Source: a virus (taxonomy: Duplodnaviria; Caudoviricetes). From it: a stretch of DNA of 59,159 nucleotides. Shown piece after piece: positions 6,408 to 27,300 of this stretch; position 1 is the stretch's first letter, and every line of letters begins with the position of its first letter. The DNA lies in IMG/VR virus record IMGVR_UViG_3300044506_000022, positions 1-59,159 of that record, one strand, 5' to 3'. The notes under the pieces were generated by a model that was given only the letters and a program-made list of their open reading frames with translations, searched no databases and was not told the origin of the DNA. A program made the position numbers and the translations under genes.

Positions 6408-6779
6408 TCAGAAAGGTAAGTCTGAGTCATTTTCACTTTGTACATCTTTGAAAAATTTACAGATTTCAGTAAATAATAAATCTTTAGTTCGTTGGAATTT
6501 AGGTAACTCGTCATATCGTTTCATGCAAGGATGAGTTTTCTTCTCTGGATCCTTTTCTTTTCCATATACCCAACCTTCTTCAAGCTTTTGTTTTAACCAA
6601 TTTTCGTGAGATTGTTCAGGAGTTACATCATGTTCAAGATGGAACTTAACCCCATTAATTGCACTTTCCTTTTGCCATTCAGGTGAAACCTCCCAATCTA
6701 CTTGACTCGTATCTCCTACACTTTCACAATAAGCCTTGTTTATTTGGTGACATAACTTTGCGATTTGTTCAATTTTCAT
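6408..6779 (-). CDS. RyR-domain protein with acidic DLPF tail
   Basis: HENW...EGWVYG..KD..KKTHPCM..YDELP..QRTKD RyR-repeat signature. Confidence 0.85.
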   Translation of the reverse strand: MKIEQIAKLCHQINKAYCESVGDTSQVDWEVSPEWQKESAINGVKFHLEHDVTPEQSHENWLKQKLEEGWVYGKEKDPEKKTHPCMKRYDELPKFQRTKDLLFTEICKFFKDVQSENDSDLPF

Positions 6780-6941: not shown

Positions 6942-7220
6942 TTAAACCTCACAGATTGCATTTAGCGCTTCTGGATTCAACACTTCTATGTGTGTTCCTT
7001 TCATTCCGAGTGACTTCGAACGAATGATACCTACAAGAGCTAATTTACTGATTGTGGCTGTAACAACAGTTCTAGAAATTTCTTGTCCTTCGATTAGATC
7101 CGCAGCAACGAATACTCTTGATTTTTGGCCATCTAACGCTTCAGATAAAATCTTTGTTACCTCTAATTCCGTATGAGATAATTGTTTAATCACCGTACTT
7201 GTATTTGTCATTAATTCCAT
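6942..7220 (-). CDS. Stand-alone CodY C-terminal winged-HTH domain (no GAF domain)
   Basis: LSHTELE...SRTVV.ATISKL...GIIRSKSLGMKGTHIEVLN matches the CodY wHTH (LSYSELE...[34 protein letters not shown]). Confidence 0.9.
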   Translation of the reverse strand: MELMTNTSTVIKQLSHTELEVTKILSEALDGQKSRVFVAADLIEGQEISRTVVTATISKLALVGIIRSKSLGMKGTHIEVLNPEALNAICEV

Positions 7221-18350: not shown

Positions 18351-18524
18351 TTATTCGAAAAGTTCATTTTCAATTGCGAACTGAGTCGGATTTCCAAATC
18401 TGTCCATCATATTGAATTCAACTAACTTTTTAAATGTTTGTTCTTTCGATAAAACGATCCCGCGATTTCTTAAATACACTTGTAATTCATTTACTGCAGC
18501 AACTGCTTTTGAAGGTATTCTCAT
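18351..18524 (-). CDS. Hypothetical protein, 57 aa, absent from ORF track
   Basis: MRIPSKAVAAVNELQ...GNPTQFAIENELFE; ATGA overlap with the antirepressor gene. Confidence 0.6.
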   Translation of the reverse strand: MRIPSKAVAAVNELQVYLRNRGIVLSKEQTFKKLVEFNMMDRFGNPTQFAIENELFE

Positions 18525-19252
18525 CGAGCAACCTCCACTTTAAATTCCTTAAGTAACACATCAATTAACTTAACCTGACCTTTGCCAGTTATCATTGTTG
18601 TTCCACTTTGAATGTCACCCTCGGTCCTTTTAACAATTGTTGGTAATAGTTCGAATAGTCCTTGCTCAACGAATTGTTGCTTAGGGAAGTTTTTCTCTCT
18701 GCCCGTTTTGATTAAGTACCCTTTATCTCTTAGCCATTCCATTAATTTATTGCGACCGATGTTAATTCCATGTTTGTCAAAAATTAACTTAGCAAATGCT
18801 CCAATGTTTATAGAACCATCACTGATTGCTACGACTTTGCCGAAATTTGTGTATTGCTTATCTTGTTCAATCTGACTTTCAAGTTTAATGATTTTTTGTT
18901 GTTGAAACTCCATCGCTCTTTTGATAATCATTTCTGGACTGTTCCACATTTTTTCGATTTGAAGGAAATATTGTCTTGCTTGTTTTCCTTTTTCAGTACG
19001 TTGGATCATTGCTATTTCTTTTGCCATGTCTAGTTTTATGTAGTGATCAATAAACGTTGTCATGTTACCTTGAGCTGTTGCTCTTTTTTGAGCAGTAGCT
19101 ATAAAATCTACTTTTTCAGTAAATCCATAATCAACCATTCTAGGAAACCAATCTTTATATAAAGTTTTCACTCCTAAAAACTCGTGCAACTCACGGCCAC
19201 TAATAATGATTTCACCTTGATCATTTTGTTTTGTAGTGATTAGTTCGTTCAT
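18521..19252 (-). CDS. Phage antirepressor (AntA/AntB N-terminal plus KilA-C/ANT C-terminal)
   Basis: SGRELHEFL...DMAKEIAMIQR..KGKQARQYF; IGRNKLMEWLR...TGKGQ. Confidence 0.9.
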   Translation of the reverse strand: MNELITTKQNDQGEIIISGRELHEFLGVKTLYKDWFPRMVDYGFTEKVDFIATAQKRATAQGNMTTFIDHYIKLDMAKEIAMIQRTEKGKQARQYFLQIEKMWNSPEMIIKRAMEFQQQKIIKLESQIEQDKQYTNFGKVVAISDGSINIGAFAKLIFDKHGINIGRNKLMEWLRDKGYLIKTGREKNFPKQQFVEQGLFELLPTIVKRTEGDIQSGTTMITGKGQVKLIDVLLKEFKVEVAR

Positions 19253-19386
19253 TCCTCTTCCTCACTATTTTCATTTTTTATTTGTTCTAATTCGTACATT
19301 TCAGTAAAGTACGGTTCGAATGCTTCTTTAAATGCTTCTTCTTTTTTCTTGGTGCCATATGTTACCGTTCCTACACGAAGAACCAT
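19249..19386 (-). CDS. Hypothetical protein, 45 aa, absent from ORF track
   Basis: gaggtga RBS; ATGA overlap with the antirepressor gene. Confidence 0.55.
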   Translation of the reverse strand: MVLRVGTVTYGTKKKEEAFKEAFEPYFTEMYELEQIKNENSEEEE

Positions 19387-19434
19387 TAAATATCACCTCT
19401 TTGTTAAATCATATGCAGGAATAGTAAACATAAT

Positions 19435-19735
19435 TTCCACTTAAAGTGGAATCACTTAGAAAAAAATATTTCCTCAATTGACTTACCGTAAAATTCACTC
19501 AATCTTTTTAATAAGTCTTTACCTGGAAATCGTTTACCGTTCTCTACTGCGTTATACATTTGTATAGATATGTTTAATGCTTCCGCAATTTCCTTTTGAG
19601 TACGAGAGCCACGCAAGGAAATTAATACTTCATTCTTCAATTTTACACCCCTCTCACTCCACTTACAGTGGCTTTATACTTTTATTATATCCACCATAAG
19701 TGGAAAGTCAATACATTTTTATACTTTTTGTGGAA
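19435..19735. promoter_or_regulatory. Genetic-switch operators TCCAC-N5-GTGG(AA) and lytic promoter
   Basis: ttccacttaaagtggaa 19435-19451; tccacttacagtgg 19658-19671; tccaccataagtggaa 19690-19705, filling the spacer of minus-strand TTGACT-N16-TATAAT. Confidence 0.8.
19452..19640 (-). CDS. Cro-like XRE HTH regulator
   Basis: TQKEIAEALNIS.QMYNAVENGKRFP; first gene of the lytic operon. Confidence 0.9.
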   Translation of the reverse strand: MKNEVLISLRGSRTQKEIAEALNISIQMYNAVENGKRFPGKDLLKRLSEFYGKSIEEIFFSK

Positions 19736-19834
19736 ATTGATACAAAACAATTTCATATCCGTGAATTTTATGTGAAAATTATAGTAAATATATCTTATTT
19801 CAGAAGGTAATACTAATTAATAAAGGTGATTAAT

Positions 19835-20167
19835 ATGACATTTGGTAAACGTTTGTCTCGATTAAGAGAAAGTCGTAATATGGATCAAACTAAATTAGGG
19901 GAAATTTTAAATTTAAGTAAAAGTACAGTTTCAGCATATGAGCACGATCAACGTCAACCAAGCCCAGAAACTATCGTACTAATTGCAGAAATATTCAATG
20001 TTACTACGGATTATTTATTGCGTGGAGAAGAAGATACAACTAAAGATAATGAACTTTCAAGAGAACTAAAAGATTTTATTGAGAGATATAATAAATTGGA
20101 TGAAGATGAAAAAGAATTTTTAATGAAGAAAATAGAGAAATTAACTAAAACACTAGAAGAAATGTAG
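19835..20167 (+). CDS. CI-like immunity repressor (XRE HTH, no S24 peptidase domain)
   Basis: FGKRLSRLRE...SKSTVSAYE...TTDYLL; divergent from cro across the operators. Confidence 0.85.
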   Translation: MTFGKRLSRLRESRNMDQTKLGEILNLSKSTVSAYEHDQRQPSPETIVLIAEIFNVTTDYLLRGEEDTTKDNELSRELKDFIERYNKLDEDEKEFLMKKIEKLTKTLEEM

Positions 20168-20169
20168 AG

Positions 20170-20201
20170 CCCCCTTTAGAGATTAAGGGGGTTATTTTTT
20201 T
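20170..20201 (+). terminator. Terminator after the repressor gene
   Basis: ccccctt...aaggggg followed by ttattttttt. Confidence 0.7.
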
Positions 20202-20307
20202 CAATCTGAATTATTTCGAATAATTCGTCAATTACTTTTTTGCTGTCGAATCCTTTTTCTTTTAATAATTTGATTAATGCTAATGCTTTCGACTCAACTG
20301 TTTTCAT
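20176..20307 (-). CDS. 43-aa protein under a LexA box; candidate SOS antirepressor, absent from ORF track
   Basis: MKTVESKALALIKLLKEKGFDSKKVIDELFEIIQIEKNNPLNL; aggggt RBS; own extended -10 promoter. Confidence 0.65.
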   Translation of the reverse strand: MKTVESKALALIKLLKEKGFDSKKVIDELFEIIQIEKNNPLNL

Positions 20308-20340
20308 AATCTCAACCCCTGTTAGATAAATTGTAAATTA

Positions 20341-20369
20341 ATTATAACATTTTTCAGGAACGTGTGTTC
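20341..20369 (-). promoter_or_regulatory. Extended -10 promoter with Firmicutes LexA (DinR) box
   Basis: TGTTATAAT on the minus strand (20349-20341); GAAC-GTGT-GTTC at 20358-20369. Confidence 0.75.
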
Positions 20370-20575
20370 TAGTTTTTTTCTTATAGTACTTATATACTAT
20401 TAAATAAATTAAGAGTATTCTTACAAAATTACTATTCGCTTTTAATTATATGTATAATTTTCCGACAAATAAAGACTAAATTTACAACAATTAGCGACAA
20501 AATATTTTTATGTCAATATTTTCCAATTATAATTAAATTATAAAAAAACGGGAAACCTATCGTTACTGAGTAGAA

Positions 20576-20899
20576 ATGAGTGATAATGTGCTAGGTGAAA
20601 GGTTAAGACAACTCAGAATCGAGCATAAGTACTCACAAAAAGACGTGGCCGAACTAACAGGTGTCACGCGAAGTACATATGCTGGTTATGAGAACAACAA
20701 TGCTCCACCAGATGTATTTATAATTATTAAATTAGCTAAATTATATAAGACTTCAACAGATTTTATCTTGTTTGGAGTAACAGAGAATTTCATCCTCCCT
20801 CTTGAATTTAAAGAAGTACTCAACGATCTGCCCCATGAACGAATTAATAATTTTTGGGAACATCTTATTGAATTTGCTCGATATTTATCTAAACGATGA
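20576..20899 (+). CDS. Second XRE-family HTH regulator
   Basis: LGERLRQLR...SQKDVAE..GVTRSTYAGYE...STDFIL. Confidence 0.88.
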   Translation: MSDNVLGERLRQLRIEHKYSQKDVAELTGVTRSTYAGYENNNAPPDVFIIIKLAKLYKTSTDFILFGVTENFILPLEFKEVLNDLPHERINNFWEHLIEFARYLSKR

Positions 20900-20900
20900 T

Positions 20901-20952
20901 TTGTTTGCGATAGTTATGCACTTCAAATGAAATATATAACTATCGCAAACAA
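20901..20952. other. Putative attP of the serine integrase
   Basis: 52-bp element: 17-bp perfect IR (ttgtttgcgatagttat/ataactatcgcaaacaa), inner ttca/tgaa IR, central AA at 20926-20927; 13 bp past the integrase stop. Confidence 0.75.
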
Positions 20953-20965
20953 TTAAAATAGCATT

Positions 20966-22435
20966 CTATTTGTTATCAAATGTATATTCAAAGTTAACTT
21001 CGCCATCATGATGTACAGTTAGTTTTTTAATCAAGGTTTTAAACACTCGGTAAAGATCGTTATCTTTCTTCTCCAATTCCTCGAACGCTTTCTTTACTGT
21101 CTCAATTTGTATTTGAGTAAATTTTGTTGTATTTAATGAAGAAATCTGTTTTTCTAATTCAATTTTTTTTAATTCAAAATCATTTTTTCTCTTTTGAAAT
21201 TCTTCTTTACTGATAAGTTGGTCTAAATATAAATCAACTAATGATTCTTTTTTAGTTTGTATTTGCTCTAATTGTCTCTTTGATGATTCTAATTGTTTTA
21301 CACCTTTTTGCTCTAACTTGTTTTCAATATTAAAATTGATTTCTTTTCCTTCTAATAATAATTGATTAATTACAAGTTCTCTGAAATCCTCGTATCTTAT
21401 AGGTATATGGTTTTCACAAAGATGTACTCCGCCCCTTCTGTAAGCACTACACTTCATATATCTCCATTCTGTTTTGGTGCCATCTTCTTTCTTCCTCCAG
21501 GAAGCTGTCGTAATCATATTACATCCACACTTCCCACAAACAGCAATGCCACCTCTAAACTCATTAACTAGTGACCATTTTGTACGTTTAGGAATTTCTT
21601 TTCCATTCGCTTCTTCCCAAACCTCAATAGGTACAATTGCACGATGTTGATTCTCGAATATTCTCCATTTTTCAGGAGGGTTTTGAATTTGCTTTTTCCG
21701 ACCACCGAATTTAACTTTTGTATATCTACCGAGAATAACAGTACCTTTATAGATAGGATTTTTAATCATGGTGTTAACTGAAACATATTGCCATTTACCA
21801 CCAGAACGAGTTGTGTAACCTTCTTCATTTAGACGATTAGATATATTTTTAAGTCCGATTCCATTTGTATACCAATCAAAAATCATTCTGACAATAGGTG
21901 CTTCTTTTTCATCTGGAACTAATTTTTTATATTCGTCTACTCTATATCCAAACGGAGCTTTAGATCCTCGATGTTCACCTCTTCGCACTTTTGCAGCAAT
22001 AGCACTAGAAATGGATACTGATAAAGTTTTTGGATATTGAGCTGCAAACATTGCGAACATCTCAAATTTCATATCATTCTTACCTTCGTATAAAGAGTCG
22101 TAACCTTCCTCGATTGTTACAAGGCGAACTCCATGAGCTATAAATACCTCTTTTATTTCTAATGCGTCTTTCAAGTCCCTCGCTAAACGATGAATTGACT
22201 TGAATACAACTAAATCTATAAGTTTTTTCTTTGCTTTTGATAATAATACTTGCATAGCCTCACGTTCTAAAAACGCTGTACCAGTTATTGCCTCATCATA
22301 ATGGACTGTACTATCGTCCCACTCATAACCATTACGTTCTAGCCAAAGTCGGCAAATGTCAACTTGGTTTTCTACTGATGTCACTTGTTCATCTTTTTCA
22401 GTTGATACACGTACATAAACTGCATAGTTAGACAT
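20966..22435 (-). CDS. Large serine recombinase (integrase)
   Basis: YVRVST catalytic Ser, RLARD, recombinase domain (PFGY, NPIYKG), Zn ribbon CGKCG...C..C, coiled coil. Confidence 0.95.
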   Translation of the reverse strand: MSNYAVYVRVSTEKDEQVTSVENQVDICRLWLERNGYEWDDSTVHYDEAITGTAFLEREAMQVLLSKAKKKLIDLVVFKSIHRLARDLKDALEIKEVFIAHGVRLVTIEEGYDSLYEGKNDMKFEMFAMFAAQYPKTLSVSISSAIAAKVRRGEHRGSKAPFGYRVDEYKKLVPDEKEAPIVRMIFDWYTNGIGLKNISNRLNEEGYTTRSGGKWQYVSVNTMIKNPIYKGTVILGRYTKVKFGGRKKQIQNPPEKWRIFENQHRAIVPIEVWEEANGKEIPKRTKWSLVNEFRGGIAVCGKCGCNMITTASWRKKEDGTKTEWRYMKCSAYRRGGVHLCENHIPIRYEDFRELVINQLLLEGKEINFNIENKLEQKGVKQLESSKRQLEQIQTKKESLVDLYLDQLISKEEFQKRKNDFELKKIELEKQISSLNTTKFTQIQIETVKKAFEELEKKDNDLYRVFKTLIKKLTVHHDGEVNFEYTFDNK

Positions 22436-22528: not shown

Positions 22529-22765
22529 TTATTTAATTAGAGTTAACTCTCCACATCTTTCTAAAATTTCTACATCATCCAATTTACTTACATTGACTTT
22601 CACATGACCACTCTTAGTTTTTAAAACTGTATACCCATTAATAAATCTAACAAAACGACCTTCAATTGTTTCTAGATCACCAAAGTTAGTTAATGTCATT
22701 TTTAGCAAATCGCCTTTTTGTGGTTTTAAGTTGATAAGAGTTAAATACTTTGTTCTAATATCCAT
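22529..22765 (-). CDS. YolD-like (SH3/WYL-like) small protein, paralog B
   Basis: GDLLKMT...GRFVRF...VLKT...LDDVEILER, paralogous to the next ORF. Confidence 0.55.
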   Translation of the reverse strand: MDIRTKYLTLINLKPQKGDLLKMTLTNFGDLETIEGRFVRFINGYTVLKTKSGHVKVNVSKLDDVEILERCGELTLIK

Positions 22766-22779
22766 AATAGACCTCCTAA

Positions 22780-23058
22780 TTAAATAAAATTGTTTATTCT
22801 TTCTAAAATAAGCACATCATCTATACAAATAATGTCTATCTTTAGTTTTTCCTCTTGTGTTTTCAAAACGAGTTTACCTGGAATGAATTTTACAAAAAAA
22901 CCTATAACTGTTTTGGTATTTAATCCATTGTAATTTGAGTAAGTTACTTCCAACATATCTCCTTGTTTTAACTCTAAGTTAATTATCCGTATATAGGTGT
23001 TTCGTATAAAATCTACATTGAAATTGTGAGGAGGTTTATTTTTATACCACATTAGCAC
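22780..23058 (-). CDS. YolD-like (SH3/WYL-like) small protein, paralog A
   Basis: GDMLEVTY...GFFVKF...VLKT...IDDVLILER. Confidence 0.55.
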   Translation of the reverse strand: MLMWYKNKPPHNFNVDFIRNTYIRIINLELKQGDMLEVTYSNYNGLNTKTVIGFFVKFIPGKLVLKTQEEKLKIDIICIDDVLILERINNFI

Positions 23059-25195
23059 CCTCCTTGCTTGGTGGAGCTGACATATATGCCATAAAAGGAA
23101 CTGTGCTTTCGCCTCCAGTTCGCAAAATATTGATTGCGTGCCATCGTTTTAGTTTCATACACTCTTCTAAAGTAAAAGGTGCTACTTCTTCTAAAAAGGC
23201 TTTCCATGTATCTTTTGAAGTCGGATACAGATGATAATGAGGTAACGCATTTTTAATAGATAATCTAGCTTGCCTTGGCAACTGCTCCCAGTAATGAAAT
23301 AACCAAGTGAAGCTGACTCTCCATTTTCTGCTCTCTACTGCCATACTCTCCCATAACTTTGCACTTCTATTAAATTGATGTGGTTCGTCAACGATCACAA
23401 AGAATGGATGTTGGTGTTCTTCTTTTCGCATTTGCATAGCCAAATTAATTTTCGTCATTAATAAGTTTCCGATTAGATTAATTTGCTTTGGTGTTAATCC
23501 ATCCAGTTTGCTAACATCAAATACGAAAGCTTTCTTTTGACTGAGGATTTCAACAAAATCAAGTTCATTATTACTCGTAAAACAATCCATAAGGAACGGA
23601 TCGCCCATAATCATATCTAATCGATTGTAGATCGGCTTGATTAGTTTCATTCTCATTTTGTCGCTTTCTTCTTGATACTGAATGAGTGTATTTTTATGAA
23701 TACCATCTGGTAAGCTATCAATGGCTGATTGTAAATACTCTTCATCTTCCATAATACTAAATAATTCACTCATTTTAGTTGTCTTCATACCGATAACAAA
23801 GGATCTCAAATATCTCTCAGTTTGCACGTTATCTTCAAGGCTATCTTCAAAGAATGAAAGAACTGTATCAGCTAATAATCCTTTTCCGTATTGGTTATAT
23901 TTTGCTTCACACCAATCAAAGCTAGGTTTCATTTTTGAAATATTAATGATTTCATATTCTTCTGGTTTTAATACCTTTGAGATTAATTCAGATACTTCTT
24001 TTTTGGCCGGATCAATCAGTAACGCTCCAAACCCATTTTTTACTGCTTGAACTAACTTGTTTGCTCCATATCCTTTTGTTTTACCTTGCCCCATCCCTCC
24101 AATTGCGCAATAAGGTAAGCATAGTTCATCATGGTTTTTAATTGGCATATAAATATTTGTTTCTTGCCCTTTATAAAGGTTCGTGCCTAGAAGCATACCG
24201 TCTTTGGTTAAGAATTTAGGTATGATTGTTTGTGATATTTCGATTCTTTCAATTCCGTATTTTTCTTGTAATGTAGATCCTGGTAATAAACATAACCTTG
24301 ATACTTCATAACTGCTCATGTAATTTGAATTATTAAATCTTGATTTTCTTCTTATCATATTTTCATAGTTTTTTGTATTACGATTTACACTTTCAAGTTT
24401 GTTATCTCCATCAAAAGAATTAAAAGCTGTTTCTAACGCTCTCATTAATGTTTCAGTACGTTTTTCTTTGCAATCTACACATAAGTTTATATTCACGTTA
24501 AAACCTGTATATTTTGCTTTTTGAAGGGTTTCTGGACGCAATTGACCATCTTTTAATAACATTGCTCTTTCACTAGCAAATAGATCGTATTTTTCAGGTT
24601 CAAATCCCATTAATTCAGTAAAGGTATTATGAGCTCCTAAAATTATACTGGCTACTCCTTTTATCGCTAAATTACCGAGATCCTTCTTATTGAATCGAAT
24701 TTTATAAGGTAATTCCCCTTTTTTAAATCCTTCATATCCTTCTTGTACACCAACAGACCAATCGTAATGCAAAGGTATTGCTAATATTTGAACTAAACAT
24801 TTTTCATTCTCTTTCATTAAGTTTAGTGTTTCTAGTAAATAGACTAACCAATCAGTACGTCTATCAGCTTTTAACGAGAGGAAATAATGATTTTTGTACT
24901 GCATACTTTTAATTGCTGTAGGTTTAAAGTTTTTTAGTGGATCATCACCTTCTTTCAGTGTGATATTTGGAAAAGTGGAAAGTAGAGATTTTTCGGATAG
25001 ATCTGCCATTCCGTTATTTGTTGTAAGATAAAAGGAAGGATTAGGTTTTTGTAAGAGTATTTCGTATGAGAAGAAGTTGTTTTCTTTATCTTTGTATCGT
25101 TGGTATGGTGTTTTGTATTGGTTGAGTGCTTGAGTAAGGTGTTCAACTTTATCATTACTCAGCTTACTATCTGGAATAAGCTGAAAGTGTTTCAT
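23042..25195 (-). CDS. FtsK/HerA-superfamily (TraD/VirD4/VirB4-like) ATPase
   Basis: Walker A GGMGQGKT, LIDPAK, Walker B FVIVDEPHQF, ESRKWR...HYWEQL. Confidence 0.8.
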   Translation of the reverse strand: MKHFQLIPDSKLSNDKVEHLTQALNQYKTPYQRYKDKENNFFSYEILLQKPNPSFYLTTNNGMADLSEKSLLSTFPNITLKEGDDPLKNFKPTAIKSMQYKNHYFLSLKADRRTDWLVYLLETLNLMKENEKCLVQILAIPLHYDWSVGVQEGYEGFKKGELPYKIRFNKKDLGNLAIKGVASIILGAHNTFTELMGFEPEKYDLFASERAMLLKDGQLRPETLQKAKYTGFNVNINLCVDCKEKRTETLMRALETAFNSFDGDNKLESVNRNTKNYENMIRRKSRFNNSNYMSSYEVSRLCLLPGSTLQEKYGIERIEISQTIIPKFLTKDGMLLGTNLYKGQETNIYMPIKNHDELCLPYCAIGGMGQGKTKGYGANKLVQAVKNGFGALLIDPAKKEVSELISKVLKPEEYEIINISKMKPSFDWCEAKYNQYGKGLLADTVLSFFEDSLEDNVQTERYLRSFVIGMKTTKMSELFSIMEDEEYLQSAIDSLPDGIHKNTLIQYQEESDKMRMKLIKPIYNRLDMIMGDPFLMDCFTSNNELDFVEILSQKKAFVFDVSKLDGLTPKQINLIGNLLMTKINLAMQMRKEEHQHPFFVIVDEPHQFNRSAKLWESMAVESRKWRVSFTWLFHYWEQLPRQARLSIKNALPHYHLYPTSKDTWKAFLEEVAPFTLEECMKLKRWHAINILRTGGESTVPFMAYMSAPPSKEGANVV

Positions 25196-26053: not shown

Positions 26054-26277
26054 ATAAGTTGATTTGCAAAATCCTCATCGCCATCATCTTGTGGAGTATT
26101 TACAATAGAAGACTGATTAATGAATGGATGTGATGAAATTGGTGTCACATCTTTTTGAATTAATGATTTGATATACCTAGAAAAGTTTTTTCTATTTAGT
26201 GCATGATCATAAAGTTTCTTTTCGTCTGGATCGCTGATATTAAAACAAACATTTTTACGTTTAAATTCATTTGCCAT
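26050..26277 (-). CDS. ParR-like RHH DNA-binding/adaptor protein
   Basis: KNVCFN.SDPDE..LYDHA...NFSRYIKSLIQKD plus disordered acidic tail; coupled to the ParM-like gene. Confidence 0.7.
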   Translation of the reverse strand: MANEFKRKNVCFNISDPDEKKLYDHALNRKNFSRYIKSLIQKDVTPISSHPFINQSSIVNTPQDDGDEDFANQLI

Positions 26278-27118
26278 AGACTCTCTTCCCTACTTCGTAG
26301 AATCCTGCAGCATTAGCAAATATTGGTGGAAGCTCAATTAATTGCCCTCTAACATTTACAATTGGTTTTATTAATTGAGCTCTTGGGAAATATTCTGTTA
26401 AATATGGTATAACTTTTTCAGCTGCACCTCCTATAACATAAACTTCATCATCTTTTCTCCATTTGGTTAAAGCATTAACTGCAATTTTTCTTGCTAAATC
26501 TACTGGATTTGTTGGTGAAATATCTTCATTACCATCTGAAAAACCTCCGTAAATAGTCCAAGAATTTAAGTCCGAAAACTTCTTATTATTCATTGAAGCT
26601 AAGTTTACAGTTCCACTTCCAATATCAATCATTCTTAATTGACCATGTTTCATAATATTGAAAAATGCACTTGCTCCCTCTGCAGCCACTTCACATTTAT
26701 GAATAATAAAAGTTTTTTCTAACCCATTTACTGTTATTGAGTGTTCCCCTTCTAGCATGTTGCGTATAATTTTTTTTTCAGATTCAACGTGCTTAGAAAT
26801 TGGTTGACCTACAATTATCTTTAAGTTTTTTTGGTCCGTGTATTGGTGTATGGCTATCAGAACTCGGATTAGTGTGTCAGAATTAGCTTTTGTGTCGCCT
26901 CTGATATTACCACCTGATTCACTTTCTAATGCTAAACTTCCAGCAAATCCTCTTTTCCCTTTATAAGCAAATTCAATATCGCATTCTCCTAGTCGATCAG
27001 TAAGTTTACGCTCTCTATATTCCCCAATTGCTGAAAGGAATTTTAGAACCCCAATAGGCCCAACAGCTTTAACTTCATTACCTCCTCCATCAATACCAAT
27101 TACCATATAATCTCCCAT
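26267..27118 (-). CDS. ParM/StbA-family actin-like ATPase
   Basis: GIDGGGNEVK, GQP, AEG, IDIGSGTVN, IGGAA, FANAAGFY actin-fold motifs. Confidence 0.9.
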   Translation of the reverse strand: MGDYMVIGIDGGGNEVKAVGPIGVLKFLSAIGEYRERKLTDRLGECDIEFAYKGKRGFAGSLALESESGGNIRGDTKANSDTLIRVLIAIHQYTDQKNLKIIVGQPISKHVESEKKIIRNMLEGEHSITVNGLEKTFIIHKCEVAAEGASAFFNIMKHGQLRMIDIGSGTVNLASMNNKKFSDLNSWTIYGGFSDGNEDISPTNPVDLARKIAVNALTKWRKDDEVYVIGGAAEKVIPYLTEYFPRAQLIKPIVNVRGQLIELPPIFANAAGFYEVGKRVYGK

Positions 27119-27300
27119 ACTCTCACCCTTTCGTGTGATGTAGGTGAGAGGTAAACGAGTATGAAGTTTGTTTAGGTGTGAAGTACCTCCCACTTAATAA
27201 AGCATACTATCTATTTCTTGAAAAATTGCGTGTACTAGAAAAAAATTTCTTTAGAGGAAATAGGAAGGTGATTATCGAAAGTTATTTCAGAGGTGGAAAA

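Follow-up and report, generated by a model that had tools for sequence, protein, structure and literature searches.

The window analysed here is the whole IMG/VR record IMGVR_UViG_3300044506_000022, which has 59,159 bp, direct terminal repeats and an estimated completeness of 100%, and is the entire virus record. It contains a gene for a cI-like repressor (CI) of 110 amino acids (19835-20167, plus strand) and, convergent with it, a small open reading frame (ORF) of 43 amino acids (20176-20307, minus strand; ATG start, MKTVES...). The small ORF probably encodes a LexA-gated, AimX-like antirepressor, which would bind the two-helix tail of CI and stop its cooperative binding to three TCCAC-N5-GTGGA operators. 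An earlier note on this DNA compared the locus with coliphage 186's Tum protein and with the antirepressors of the Gifsy phages; the logic is the same, but AimX-AimC is a closer relative of the switch. AimR and AimP are lacking, and the locus is therefore a version of the AimX-AimC switch that is arbitrium-less and SOS-only (LexA-only), with a small-protein family that is new.

In the lysogen, LexA on the -35 region of a strong extended -10 promoter would keep the small gene off, and CI bound cooperatively at the three operators would shut the leftward lytic promoter. Upon DNA damage RecA would be activated, LexA would cleave itself and the 43-residue protein would be made. It would then form a 1:1 complex with CI by way of the C-terminal tail, in the manner of AimX-AimC and SinI-SinR, with the loss of CI oligomers and of operator binding, and cro, ant and the replication genes would be transcribed. 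The proposal of the earlier note, that a small protein freed from LexA repression inactivates a CI which cannot be cleaved, is the best-supported reading of the locus. It draws on the conserved promoter, box and ORF, on the homology of CI to AimC and on the proven AimX analogues, although the prediction of the complex is weak.

CI matches only helix-turn-helix (HTH) families (Pfam HTH_3, 1e-15, and Phage_CI_repr). Its AlphaFold2 model (predicted local distance difference test, pLDDT, 87) comprises an HTH domain (residues 3-63), a disordered linker (residues 64-72) and two C-terminal helices (residues 73-86 and 90-109). The protein had been described as free of an S24 domain, in a phage without an ImmA-type protease. 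This is borne out by six-frame searches of the whole phage, which gave no match to Peptidase_S24 or Peptidase_M78, and the locus is in this respect like the switches in which a LexA-controlled antirepressor acts on a non-cleavable repressor. A six-frame search of the entire window gave no match to LexA either. The CI profile matches the phi106 repressor (PDB code 9sf2_A, 1e-6, residues 4-90) and AimC of BMBtp14 (9iaq_A, 1.3e-6), and the model matches the folds of SinR in its SinI complex (1b0n_A), of 3op9 and of 9sf2_A (entitled 'Phage Phi106 repressor in complex with AimX') over 105-117 columns. CI is 36% identical to ORF32, which occupies the AimC position in the Bacillus arbitrium phage phiCM3, across all 110 residues, both C-terminal helices included. 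It thus has the features of AimC, namely an HTH repressor of 80-140 residues, no autocleavage, a helical C-terminal oligomerisation domain and AimC homology. Among annotated phage repressors, that of Listeria phage A118 is the nearest (42% over 94 residues), and a metagenome scan with the CI profile found only two relatives, of 41-42% identity.

The small ORF has its own promoter, of the sigma-A type with an extended -10. Both this element, TGTTATAAT (20341-20349, minus strand), and a GAAC-N4-GTTC motif across the -35 region had been noticed before and are present. The motif is the LexA (Cheo) box AGAACACACGTTCC (20357-20370, minus strand), which reads GAACGTGTGTTC at 20358-20369 and is the sole GAAC-N4-GTTC in the window; 11 nt lie between it and TATAAT, so that it spans about -35 to -24. 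GAAC-N4-GTTC is the LexA site of Bacillota, and LexA of the host would be expected to bind here. The motif is treated as a LexA site by the authors of 10.1101/2025.11.27.690993 and 10.1101/2021.09.20.460909. At the level of the motif, which is of the Bacillota type and is read against a presumed Bacillota host, a putative LexA operator thus overlies the promoter of the candidate antirepressor.

The case beyond chance rests on the conservation of this layout and not on the number of boxes. Protein relatives of CI that are 58-71% identical include two with DNA, the IMG/VR loci L010 and L011, both incomplete contigs. In each of them the cI homologue is followed by a hairpin, a convergent 43-residue homologue of the small ORF, TGTTATAAT and the box AGAACAAACGTTCT, which is the only GAAC-N4-GTTC of either locus and stands at the homologous place. 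The -10 element is identical at 9/9 positions in both, amid diverged flanks. Across the alignment of all three loci, the box, the -10 and the ribosome-site G-run have been retained, in contrast to the DNA upstream and the 5' leader, which have diverged. When IMG/VR was searched with the DNA pattern of box plus -10, the L010 and L011 contigs alone were found. The earlier note had proposed a tblastn survey for the arrangement of box, ORF and cI; tblastn of the small ORF yielded nothing in the phage collection, but the layout does recur in these two viral contigs.

The small ORF, which had been described as helical, convergent with cI and preceded by a ribosome-binding site, has all of these properties. 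A Shine-Dalgarno-like AGGGG (20316-20320, minus strand) stands 8 nt ahead of the ATG, and a G-run precedes the homologues of L010 and L011 at the same 8-nt spacing. The AlphaFold2 model (pLDDT 86.8) is a two-helix hairpin, with helices at residues 4-17 and 22-38. The ORF is already on record as a predicted protein of the window contig, and a search of 1.84 billion representatives found two homologues, P0015 (43 residues, 54% identity) and P0016 (44 residues, 51% identity), at E 7e-4 for the whole library. Further homologues, 35% identical, are those at L010:1078-1209 and L011:4339-4470. The five sequences, four of them distinct and all of 43-44 residues, align without internal gaps and share 11 invariant columns, including a central G-x-D-S turn. 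In both lineages this frame is the only open one, the other two being rich in stops. Codon-position identity between the window and L010 (21, 27 and 25 of 43) is uninformative at such divergence. A variant contig from a different soil run carries four changes in the small ORF, three synonymous at third positions and one I32T, at a depth of 2; because such a contig may hold errors, the synonymous changes are weak evidence. Among the sequencing-run matches, X2 does not cover the ORF. The best explanation of these observations is that the ORF is a genuine gene, presumably translated, whose product is a small helical antirepressor.

Several searches with the small protein gave no usable relatives. 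There is no family match in Pfam, PHROG or NCBIfam, and a Pfam scan of the five sequences up to E 10 gave nothing below E 0.0056, its matches to Rep_fac_C, DUF6674 and RecX_HTH1 being weak and unrelated and SinI not among them. The phage collection had no match by blastn of 19300-21000 or by tblastn of the ORF, a word-index protein search returned only the ORF itself, the ESM Atlas gave no usable match, and a fold search with the 43-residue model gave none at E 0.001 or below. Some apparent matches were rejected. A locus found with the small-ORF alignment, L019, has its match inside an open frame of 3544 amino acids and is spurious. Residues 8-21, ALALIKLLKEKGFD, are close to the ankyrin-repeat consensus xELVKLLLEKGAD, which accounts for the spurious matches to P0014, an ankyrin-repeat protein of 1341 residues, and to the designed ankyrins 4qfv and 4o60; these share just LxLLxEKGxD, a resemblance to the repeat consensus and not homology. 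Marginal matches to the small-ORF profile (E 1e-3 to 1e-2) occurred in 14 of 401 Bacilli genomes, 13 inside open frames of 173-807 amino acids and one in a frame of 73, and none was accepted.

The stop codon of the small ORF lies in the loop of a hairpin terminator (20168-20200; terminator scan), which is common to both genes and whose cI side comprises 20168-20193 and a T-run. The folding energies on the two strands are -15.3 and -13.8 kcal/mol. In the window the U-run is good for the plus strand but poor for the minus strand; in L010 it is good for both. As the hairpin of the minus strand has no good U-run, some read-through into antisense cI is possible, and an early model for aimX was likewise based on the transcript, as cited in 10.1101/2025.11.23.689978 and 10.1101/2021.09.20.460909. 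The transcript itself might then be the effector, with SOS-induced convergent transcription or antisense RNA lowering cI expression and the ORF being incidental. We consider this highly improbable, since the length, the start and 11 residues of the ORF are conserved at 35-54% identity while the other frames are closed, and since, on the small-ORF strand, the hairpin of L010 and L011 is followed by a U-run. Moreover, start-to-stop and recoded aimX alleles are reported to exclude effects of the RNA in phi106 and phiW23 (10.1101/2025.11.23.689978). An antisense role of the transcript, also suggested for the window in the earlier note, is for these reasons not supported.

The putative operators of CI lie on the other side of its gene. 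CCAC-N5-GTGG, in the form TCCAC-N5-GTGGA, occurs exactly three times in the window, where 0.12 are expected, and three were reached in none of 100 shuffles. The first of these operator-like palindromes, CCACCATAAGTGG (19691-19703), is positioned between the -35 and the -10 of a leftward lytic promoter (TTGACT-16-TATAAT, 19711-19684, minus strand), which matches the consensus at 11 of 12 positions. The second, CCACTTACAGTGG (19659-19671), is 32 bp away in the cI-cro intergenic region, and the third, CCACTTAAAGTGG (19437-19449), follows shortly after the stop of cro, at a distance of 222 bp from the second. The distal position of the third palindrome suggests looping by oligomeric CI, and oligomerisation would be expected to count in this phage. 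The lactococcal phage TP901-1 has a three-operator looping arrangement that is similar in layout. By analogy with the related systems, CI would bind these palindromes and the small protein would bind to the CI tail. The cro-like HTH gene (19452-19640, minus strand; 62 amino acids, Pfam HTH_3 3.8e-11) is divergent from cI and is followed by ant and by the replication and recombination genes, which is the arrangement of AimL.

A complex of CI with the small protein was predicted from the alignments of both. It scored 0.40 (0.38, 0.40 and 0.40 in the runs) and the best of three controls scored 0.00; the label given by the tool is 'weak support'. The pLDDT of the partner is at least 71, at least 98% of the contacts agree across runs, and no interface was output. 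In the calibration of the tool, 116 of 157 solved complexes attained the mark, as did 2 of 215 mismatches; at scores of 0.60 or less it was attained by only 18 of the 157 and by both passing mismatches. As 9sf2 is already solved, likeness to it may contribute to the score.

The weak score could also mean that the SOS-induced product acts on a target in the host or elsewhere in the phage and not on CI, for example as a modulator of LexA or RecA or as an inhibitor of growth or division. Small SOS-linked phage proteins with host targets exist, such as GIL01 gp7, which is reported to bind LexA (PMC4551915), and no known antirepressor among those compared resembles the small ORF in sequence. Such a function appears unlikely, however, because the gene is fixed beside cI, with a common terminator, in both lineages, even though the other flank differs in the orientation of the integrase gene and in an extra HTH gene. 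A host target would also leave the phage with no visible route from SOS to induction, and proven antirepressors occupy the equivalent position in phages of the AimC type.

The comparison of L010 with L011 reveals a block of 540 bp that is 92-100% identical and contains the last ~40 codons of cI, the hairpin, the small ORF, the promoter and ~200 bp further, between flanks of 55-80% identity. Within this pair the proteins are 96% (CI tail), 98% (small ORF), 72% (CI HTH domain) and 77% (integrase) identical; between the window and L010 the corresponding values are 45%, 35%, 80% and 27%. This pattern is suggestive of a small ORF that follows the CI tail rather than the DNA-binding domain. The identity of the integrase shifts in the same way and the genes are adjacent, so that the covariation is suggestive only.

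The same pattern can be read in favor of an SOS-switched recombination directionality factor, or excisionase, for the large serine integrase, as low integrase identity coincides with low small-ORF identity and each of the three loci has the small ORF placed between cI and the gene of the integrase. Directionality factors of serine integrases can be small, as are Orf7 of TP901-1 and SprB of SPbeta. Expression of sprB is reported to go up after mitomycin C (10.1101/2021.09.20.460909). This function is nevertheless very unlikely, given that, between L010 and L011, the small ORF (98%) and the CI tail fall within a single block and the identity of the integrases is only 77%. Furthermore, the orientation and distance of the integrase gene vary between the window and L010 while the ORF remains at the cI terminator, and excision alone would not derepress the lytic genes.

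An antirepressor of CI is in line with what is known of the arbitrium phages. According to Kabel et al. (10.1101/2025.11.23.689978), genes for AimX, AimC and AimL are present in about 75% of arbitrium systems. The AimC proteins described there are HTH repressors of 80-140 residues without a cleavage domain, which form dimers or tetramers via a C-terminal helical domain, while the aimX ORF encodes 29-80 residues, is convergent with aimC and in phi106 lies just downstream of a LexA site. AimX is reported in this source to heterodimerise with AimC, lift repression and abolish the gel shift. Its authors liken the pair to SinI-SinR, describe AimX proteins as highly divergent and mention few aimC or aimL homologues outside arbitrium. 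That LexA represses aimX of phi106 was reported on the basis of a non-cleavable LexA and a box mutant (Aframian et al., 10.1101/2021.09.20.460909).

The window locus shares with the phi106 family of 'extended arbitrium' systems the short non-cleavable HTH repressor with a helical tail, the divergent cro-like gene, the convergent small ORF and the LexA site upstream, as in phages of the phi106 type. In position and size the small ORF corresponds to aimX, with 43 residues and a stop inside the cI terminator. In phiCM3 the gene order is ORF29, ORF30, ORF31, the convergent ORF32 and the divergent HTH gene ORF34. ORF29 encodes an AimR receptor, with 280 bits to NF038310 (cut-off 70), ORF30 resembles an AimP pre-peptide, and ORF31 has 43 residues and shares a bidirectional terminator with ORF32. 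In contrast to the phi106 family, the window has no aimR or aimP, and its small ORF lies outside any AimR-dependent transcript and is served by an extended -10 promoter of its own, the -35 region of which is overlain by the box. NF038310 has no match in the six frames of the complete phage or in the incomplete contigs L010 and L011, and AimR families are missing among the 61 window ORFs of at least 90 amino acids and from an NCBIfam scan of two unexplained ORFs of 364-397 amino acids.

Loci of this kind are also found in bacterial genomes. The CI profile matched 232 of the 401 Bacilli genomes, and the best 30 loci were inspected. Six of these 30 have an M78 protease gene next on the same strand, and in three (L044, L048 and L049) the convergent small ORF is succeeded by an ORF resembling a signal peptide and then by a receptor-like gene. 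The latter is a confirmed AimR in L049, contains TPR repeats in L048 and has no Pfam family in L044, where a LexA box stands 18 nt ahead of a 43-residue ORF. One further locus among the best 30, L058, has the order ant, cro, CI (132 residues), hairpin and a convergent 39-residue ORF with a GTG start, and GAACGCTTGTTC ~75 nt upstream of it. Its contig is free of AimR matches, those of the genome being on another contig, and L058 would thus be a second arbitrium-less example, with the same layout and no receptor. Five of the 20 other loci among the best 30 have a neighbouring ORF of 288-294 amino acids, which in the three that were scanned is a chromosomal gene with a GXGXG domain.

Several points speak against a LexA-gated antirepressor of the AimX type. 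The number of boxes in 59 kb is compatible with chance (one observed, 0.54 expected, at least one in 41 of 100 shuffles), and the count alone thus proves nothing. The record is metagenomic, and the LexA motif presumed for the host is that of a likely Bacillota host. As L010 is nearly identical to L011 in the shared block, conservation is supported by two lineages and not three. The integrase moves with the small ORF (27% between the window and L010, 77% between L010 and L011), and CI is not cleanly favored as its partner. The small protein has no detectable sequence similarity to ORF31 of phiCM3 or to the 39-residue ORF of L058, and no match among PDB chains beyond designs of the ankyrin-repeat consensus. 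A profile comparison of its family with the CI tail gives a probability of 2.6%, which leaves the idea of 'tail mimicry' of CI unsupported at the sequence level. The small protein shows no sequence relationship to the AimX candidates compared, and its membership in an 'AimX family' is therefore one of position and partner only. Finally, the real antirepressor could be the Ant-family protein with AntA and KilAC domains (18521-19252, minus strand; Pfam AntA 1e-22, ANT 7e-21; phrog_63 1.3e-52). Its gene belongs to the early leftward operon, downstream of cro and of the third operator-like palindrome, a position also occupied in phiCM3, A118 and L058. It is, however, inside the CI-repressed operon and therefore unlikely as a trigger.

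Other known switches share single features with that of the window. In the Sar-SroF system of phi3T and SPbeta, LexA at an SOS box upstream likewise silences a small antirepressor gene, and the repressor there cannot be cleaved either. As described by Chmielowska et al. (10.1101/2025.11.27.690993), the LexA-controlled small antirepressors Sar and YopT counter the unrelated SroF repressors of these phages, SroF having an integrase-like fold and Sar being a dimeric DNA mimic. The window repressor is instead an HTH protein of the XRE family, and its oligomerisation tail is the likely target. In Tum and the Gifsy antirepressors a LexA-repressed gene also induces a prophage whose repressor is not cleaved (PMC3121763). 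SinI-SinR (1b0n) resembles the window pair in its HTH repressor of ~110 residues, whose two-helix C-terminal tail is paired by a small helical antagonist; the CI model aligns with 1b0n_A over 105 columns (E 8.2e-4), but the small-ORF family has no SinI match. SinI-SinR of Bacillus subtilis is chromosomal and not under SOS control. The Tum and Gifsy systems belong to Proteobacterial phages and involve larger, unrelated proteins and another LexA motif, and no homology with them would be expected.

The HTH domain of CI is closest to that of ImmR (7t8i_A, 5.2e-12 with the profile and 3.4e-10 with the single protein), the repressor of the ImmR-ImmA type found in ICEBs1 and, as ORF36/ORF35, in A118. 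In A118, however, the metalloprotease gene is directly downstream of the repressor gene, while the window phage has none. In two other loci of CI/ImmR homologues, L015 (5410-5936) and L057, a perfect GAAC-N4-GTTC (AGAACAAACGTTCT and CGAACGTATGTTCT, respectively) stands immediately upstream of an ImmA-type M78 gene. The box of L057 is 175 nt past the CI stop, with CI oriented on the plus strand, and overlaps a TATAAT. This suggests that LexA may directly control the protease gene in these loci, which would be a third SOS wiring of such repressors.

A second HTH gene of the XRE family (20576-20899, plus strand; 107 amino acids, Pfam HTH_3 7.6e-16) lies between the integrase gene and the promoter of the small ORF, runs divergently to the latter and is missing from L010 and L011. 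Possible targets of its regulation are int, the small ORF and immunity. If the small protein is an antirepressor but GAAC-N4-GTTC is no working LexA site in the true host, control might lie, for example, with this protein, as in the TF-smORF modules. In these modules of plasmid-like phages of Vibrio and Aeromonas, a small protein without a family inactivates cI without proteolysis (Silpe et al. 2023, PMC10432266); the 107-residue XRE-family gene of the window, divergent across 268 bp, has the geometry reported there for the Vibrio phages. In keeping with such control, the number of boxes is within chance, the host is only presumed, and a palindrome ATAGTA-N6-TACTAT (20383-20400), possibly a site of the HTH protein, lies just upstream of the box. 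The palindrome is non-significant, though, as it is present in 30 of 100 shuffles, and the box is kept at the same place in L010 and L011, which have no 107-residue HTH gene. The modules themselves are described as SOS-independent and activated by the adjacent transcription factor (PMC10432266), whereas the window has a conserved LexA box, and a LexA box at the equivalent place is reported to function in phi106 (10.1101/2021.09.20.460909). Control other than by LexA is thus quite unlikely.

In many temperate phages of Bacillota the repressor is short and not cleavable by RecA, and for most of them no route from DNA damage to induction is known. The window locus, its relatives and the L058 prophage suggest that a tiny LexA-gated protein of the AimX type, aimed at the pairing tail of the repressor, works without arbitrium. 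This may help to annotate 'empty' intergenic regions beside cI genes, adds a new family of 43-residue proteins, and bears on the origin of peptide communication on top of an SOS switch. The value is incremental, since the mechanism is already in preprints of 2021 and 2025 and the structures were released in 2026, and the switch is not a new kind of system. A more speculative view, which we regard as doubtful, is that the aimX-aimC-aimL core exists on its own as an SOS-only lysis switch, beyond arbitrium phages and beyond Bacillus as a genus, and that this form may predate the other. On that view AimR-AimP would be just one among several exchangeable inputs added to the promoter of the small antirepressor, and the 107-residue XRE protein of this phage a second input at the 268-bp control region, which would combine LexA with a phage transcription factor.

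The Pfam matches of the window give the picture of a temperate contractile-tailed phage (myovirus), with terminase, portal, sheath, baseplate and lysin, and further include RecT, RusA, a DnaC-like loader, a cytosine methylase and a large serine integrase. Almost every gene is transcribed leftward. TerL is 62-66% identical to phage terminases of Geobacillus, Psychrobacillus, Bacillus (thuringiensis) and Clostridium (tetani), and the host would accordingly be a member of Bacillota. A look-up of the sequencing runs that hold the stretch found soil metagenomes only and listed no RNA runs holding the region.

The integrase is a large serine recombinase of 489 amino acids (20966-22435, minus strand; Resolvase, Recombinase and Zn_ribbon_recom; phrog_95, 2.5e-115). 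Its gene points toward the small ORF in the window and away from it, on the cI strand, in L010 and L011. The integrases are 27-30% identical, and together with the differing orientation this indicates that recombination has joined the immunity module to different integration modules. A 717-residue protein (23042-25195), the sole match of which is phrog_5156, of unassigned function (E 5.7e-184), is encoded just upstream of the integrase gene; two small ORFs that look paralogous (22529-22765 and 22780-23058) separate the two genes. An actin-like gene of the ParM type (ALP_N, 26267-27193) accompanies the serine integrase and may indicate a segregation function or a plasmid-like lifestyle. The early region contains a gene with an RyR domain (6408-6779) and a CodY-type HTH gene (6942-7220), and a full-length GroES (Cpn10) homologue is encoded at 137-418 (E 5e-34).

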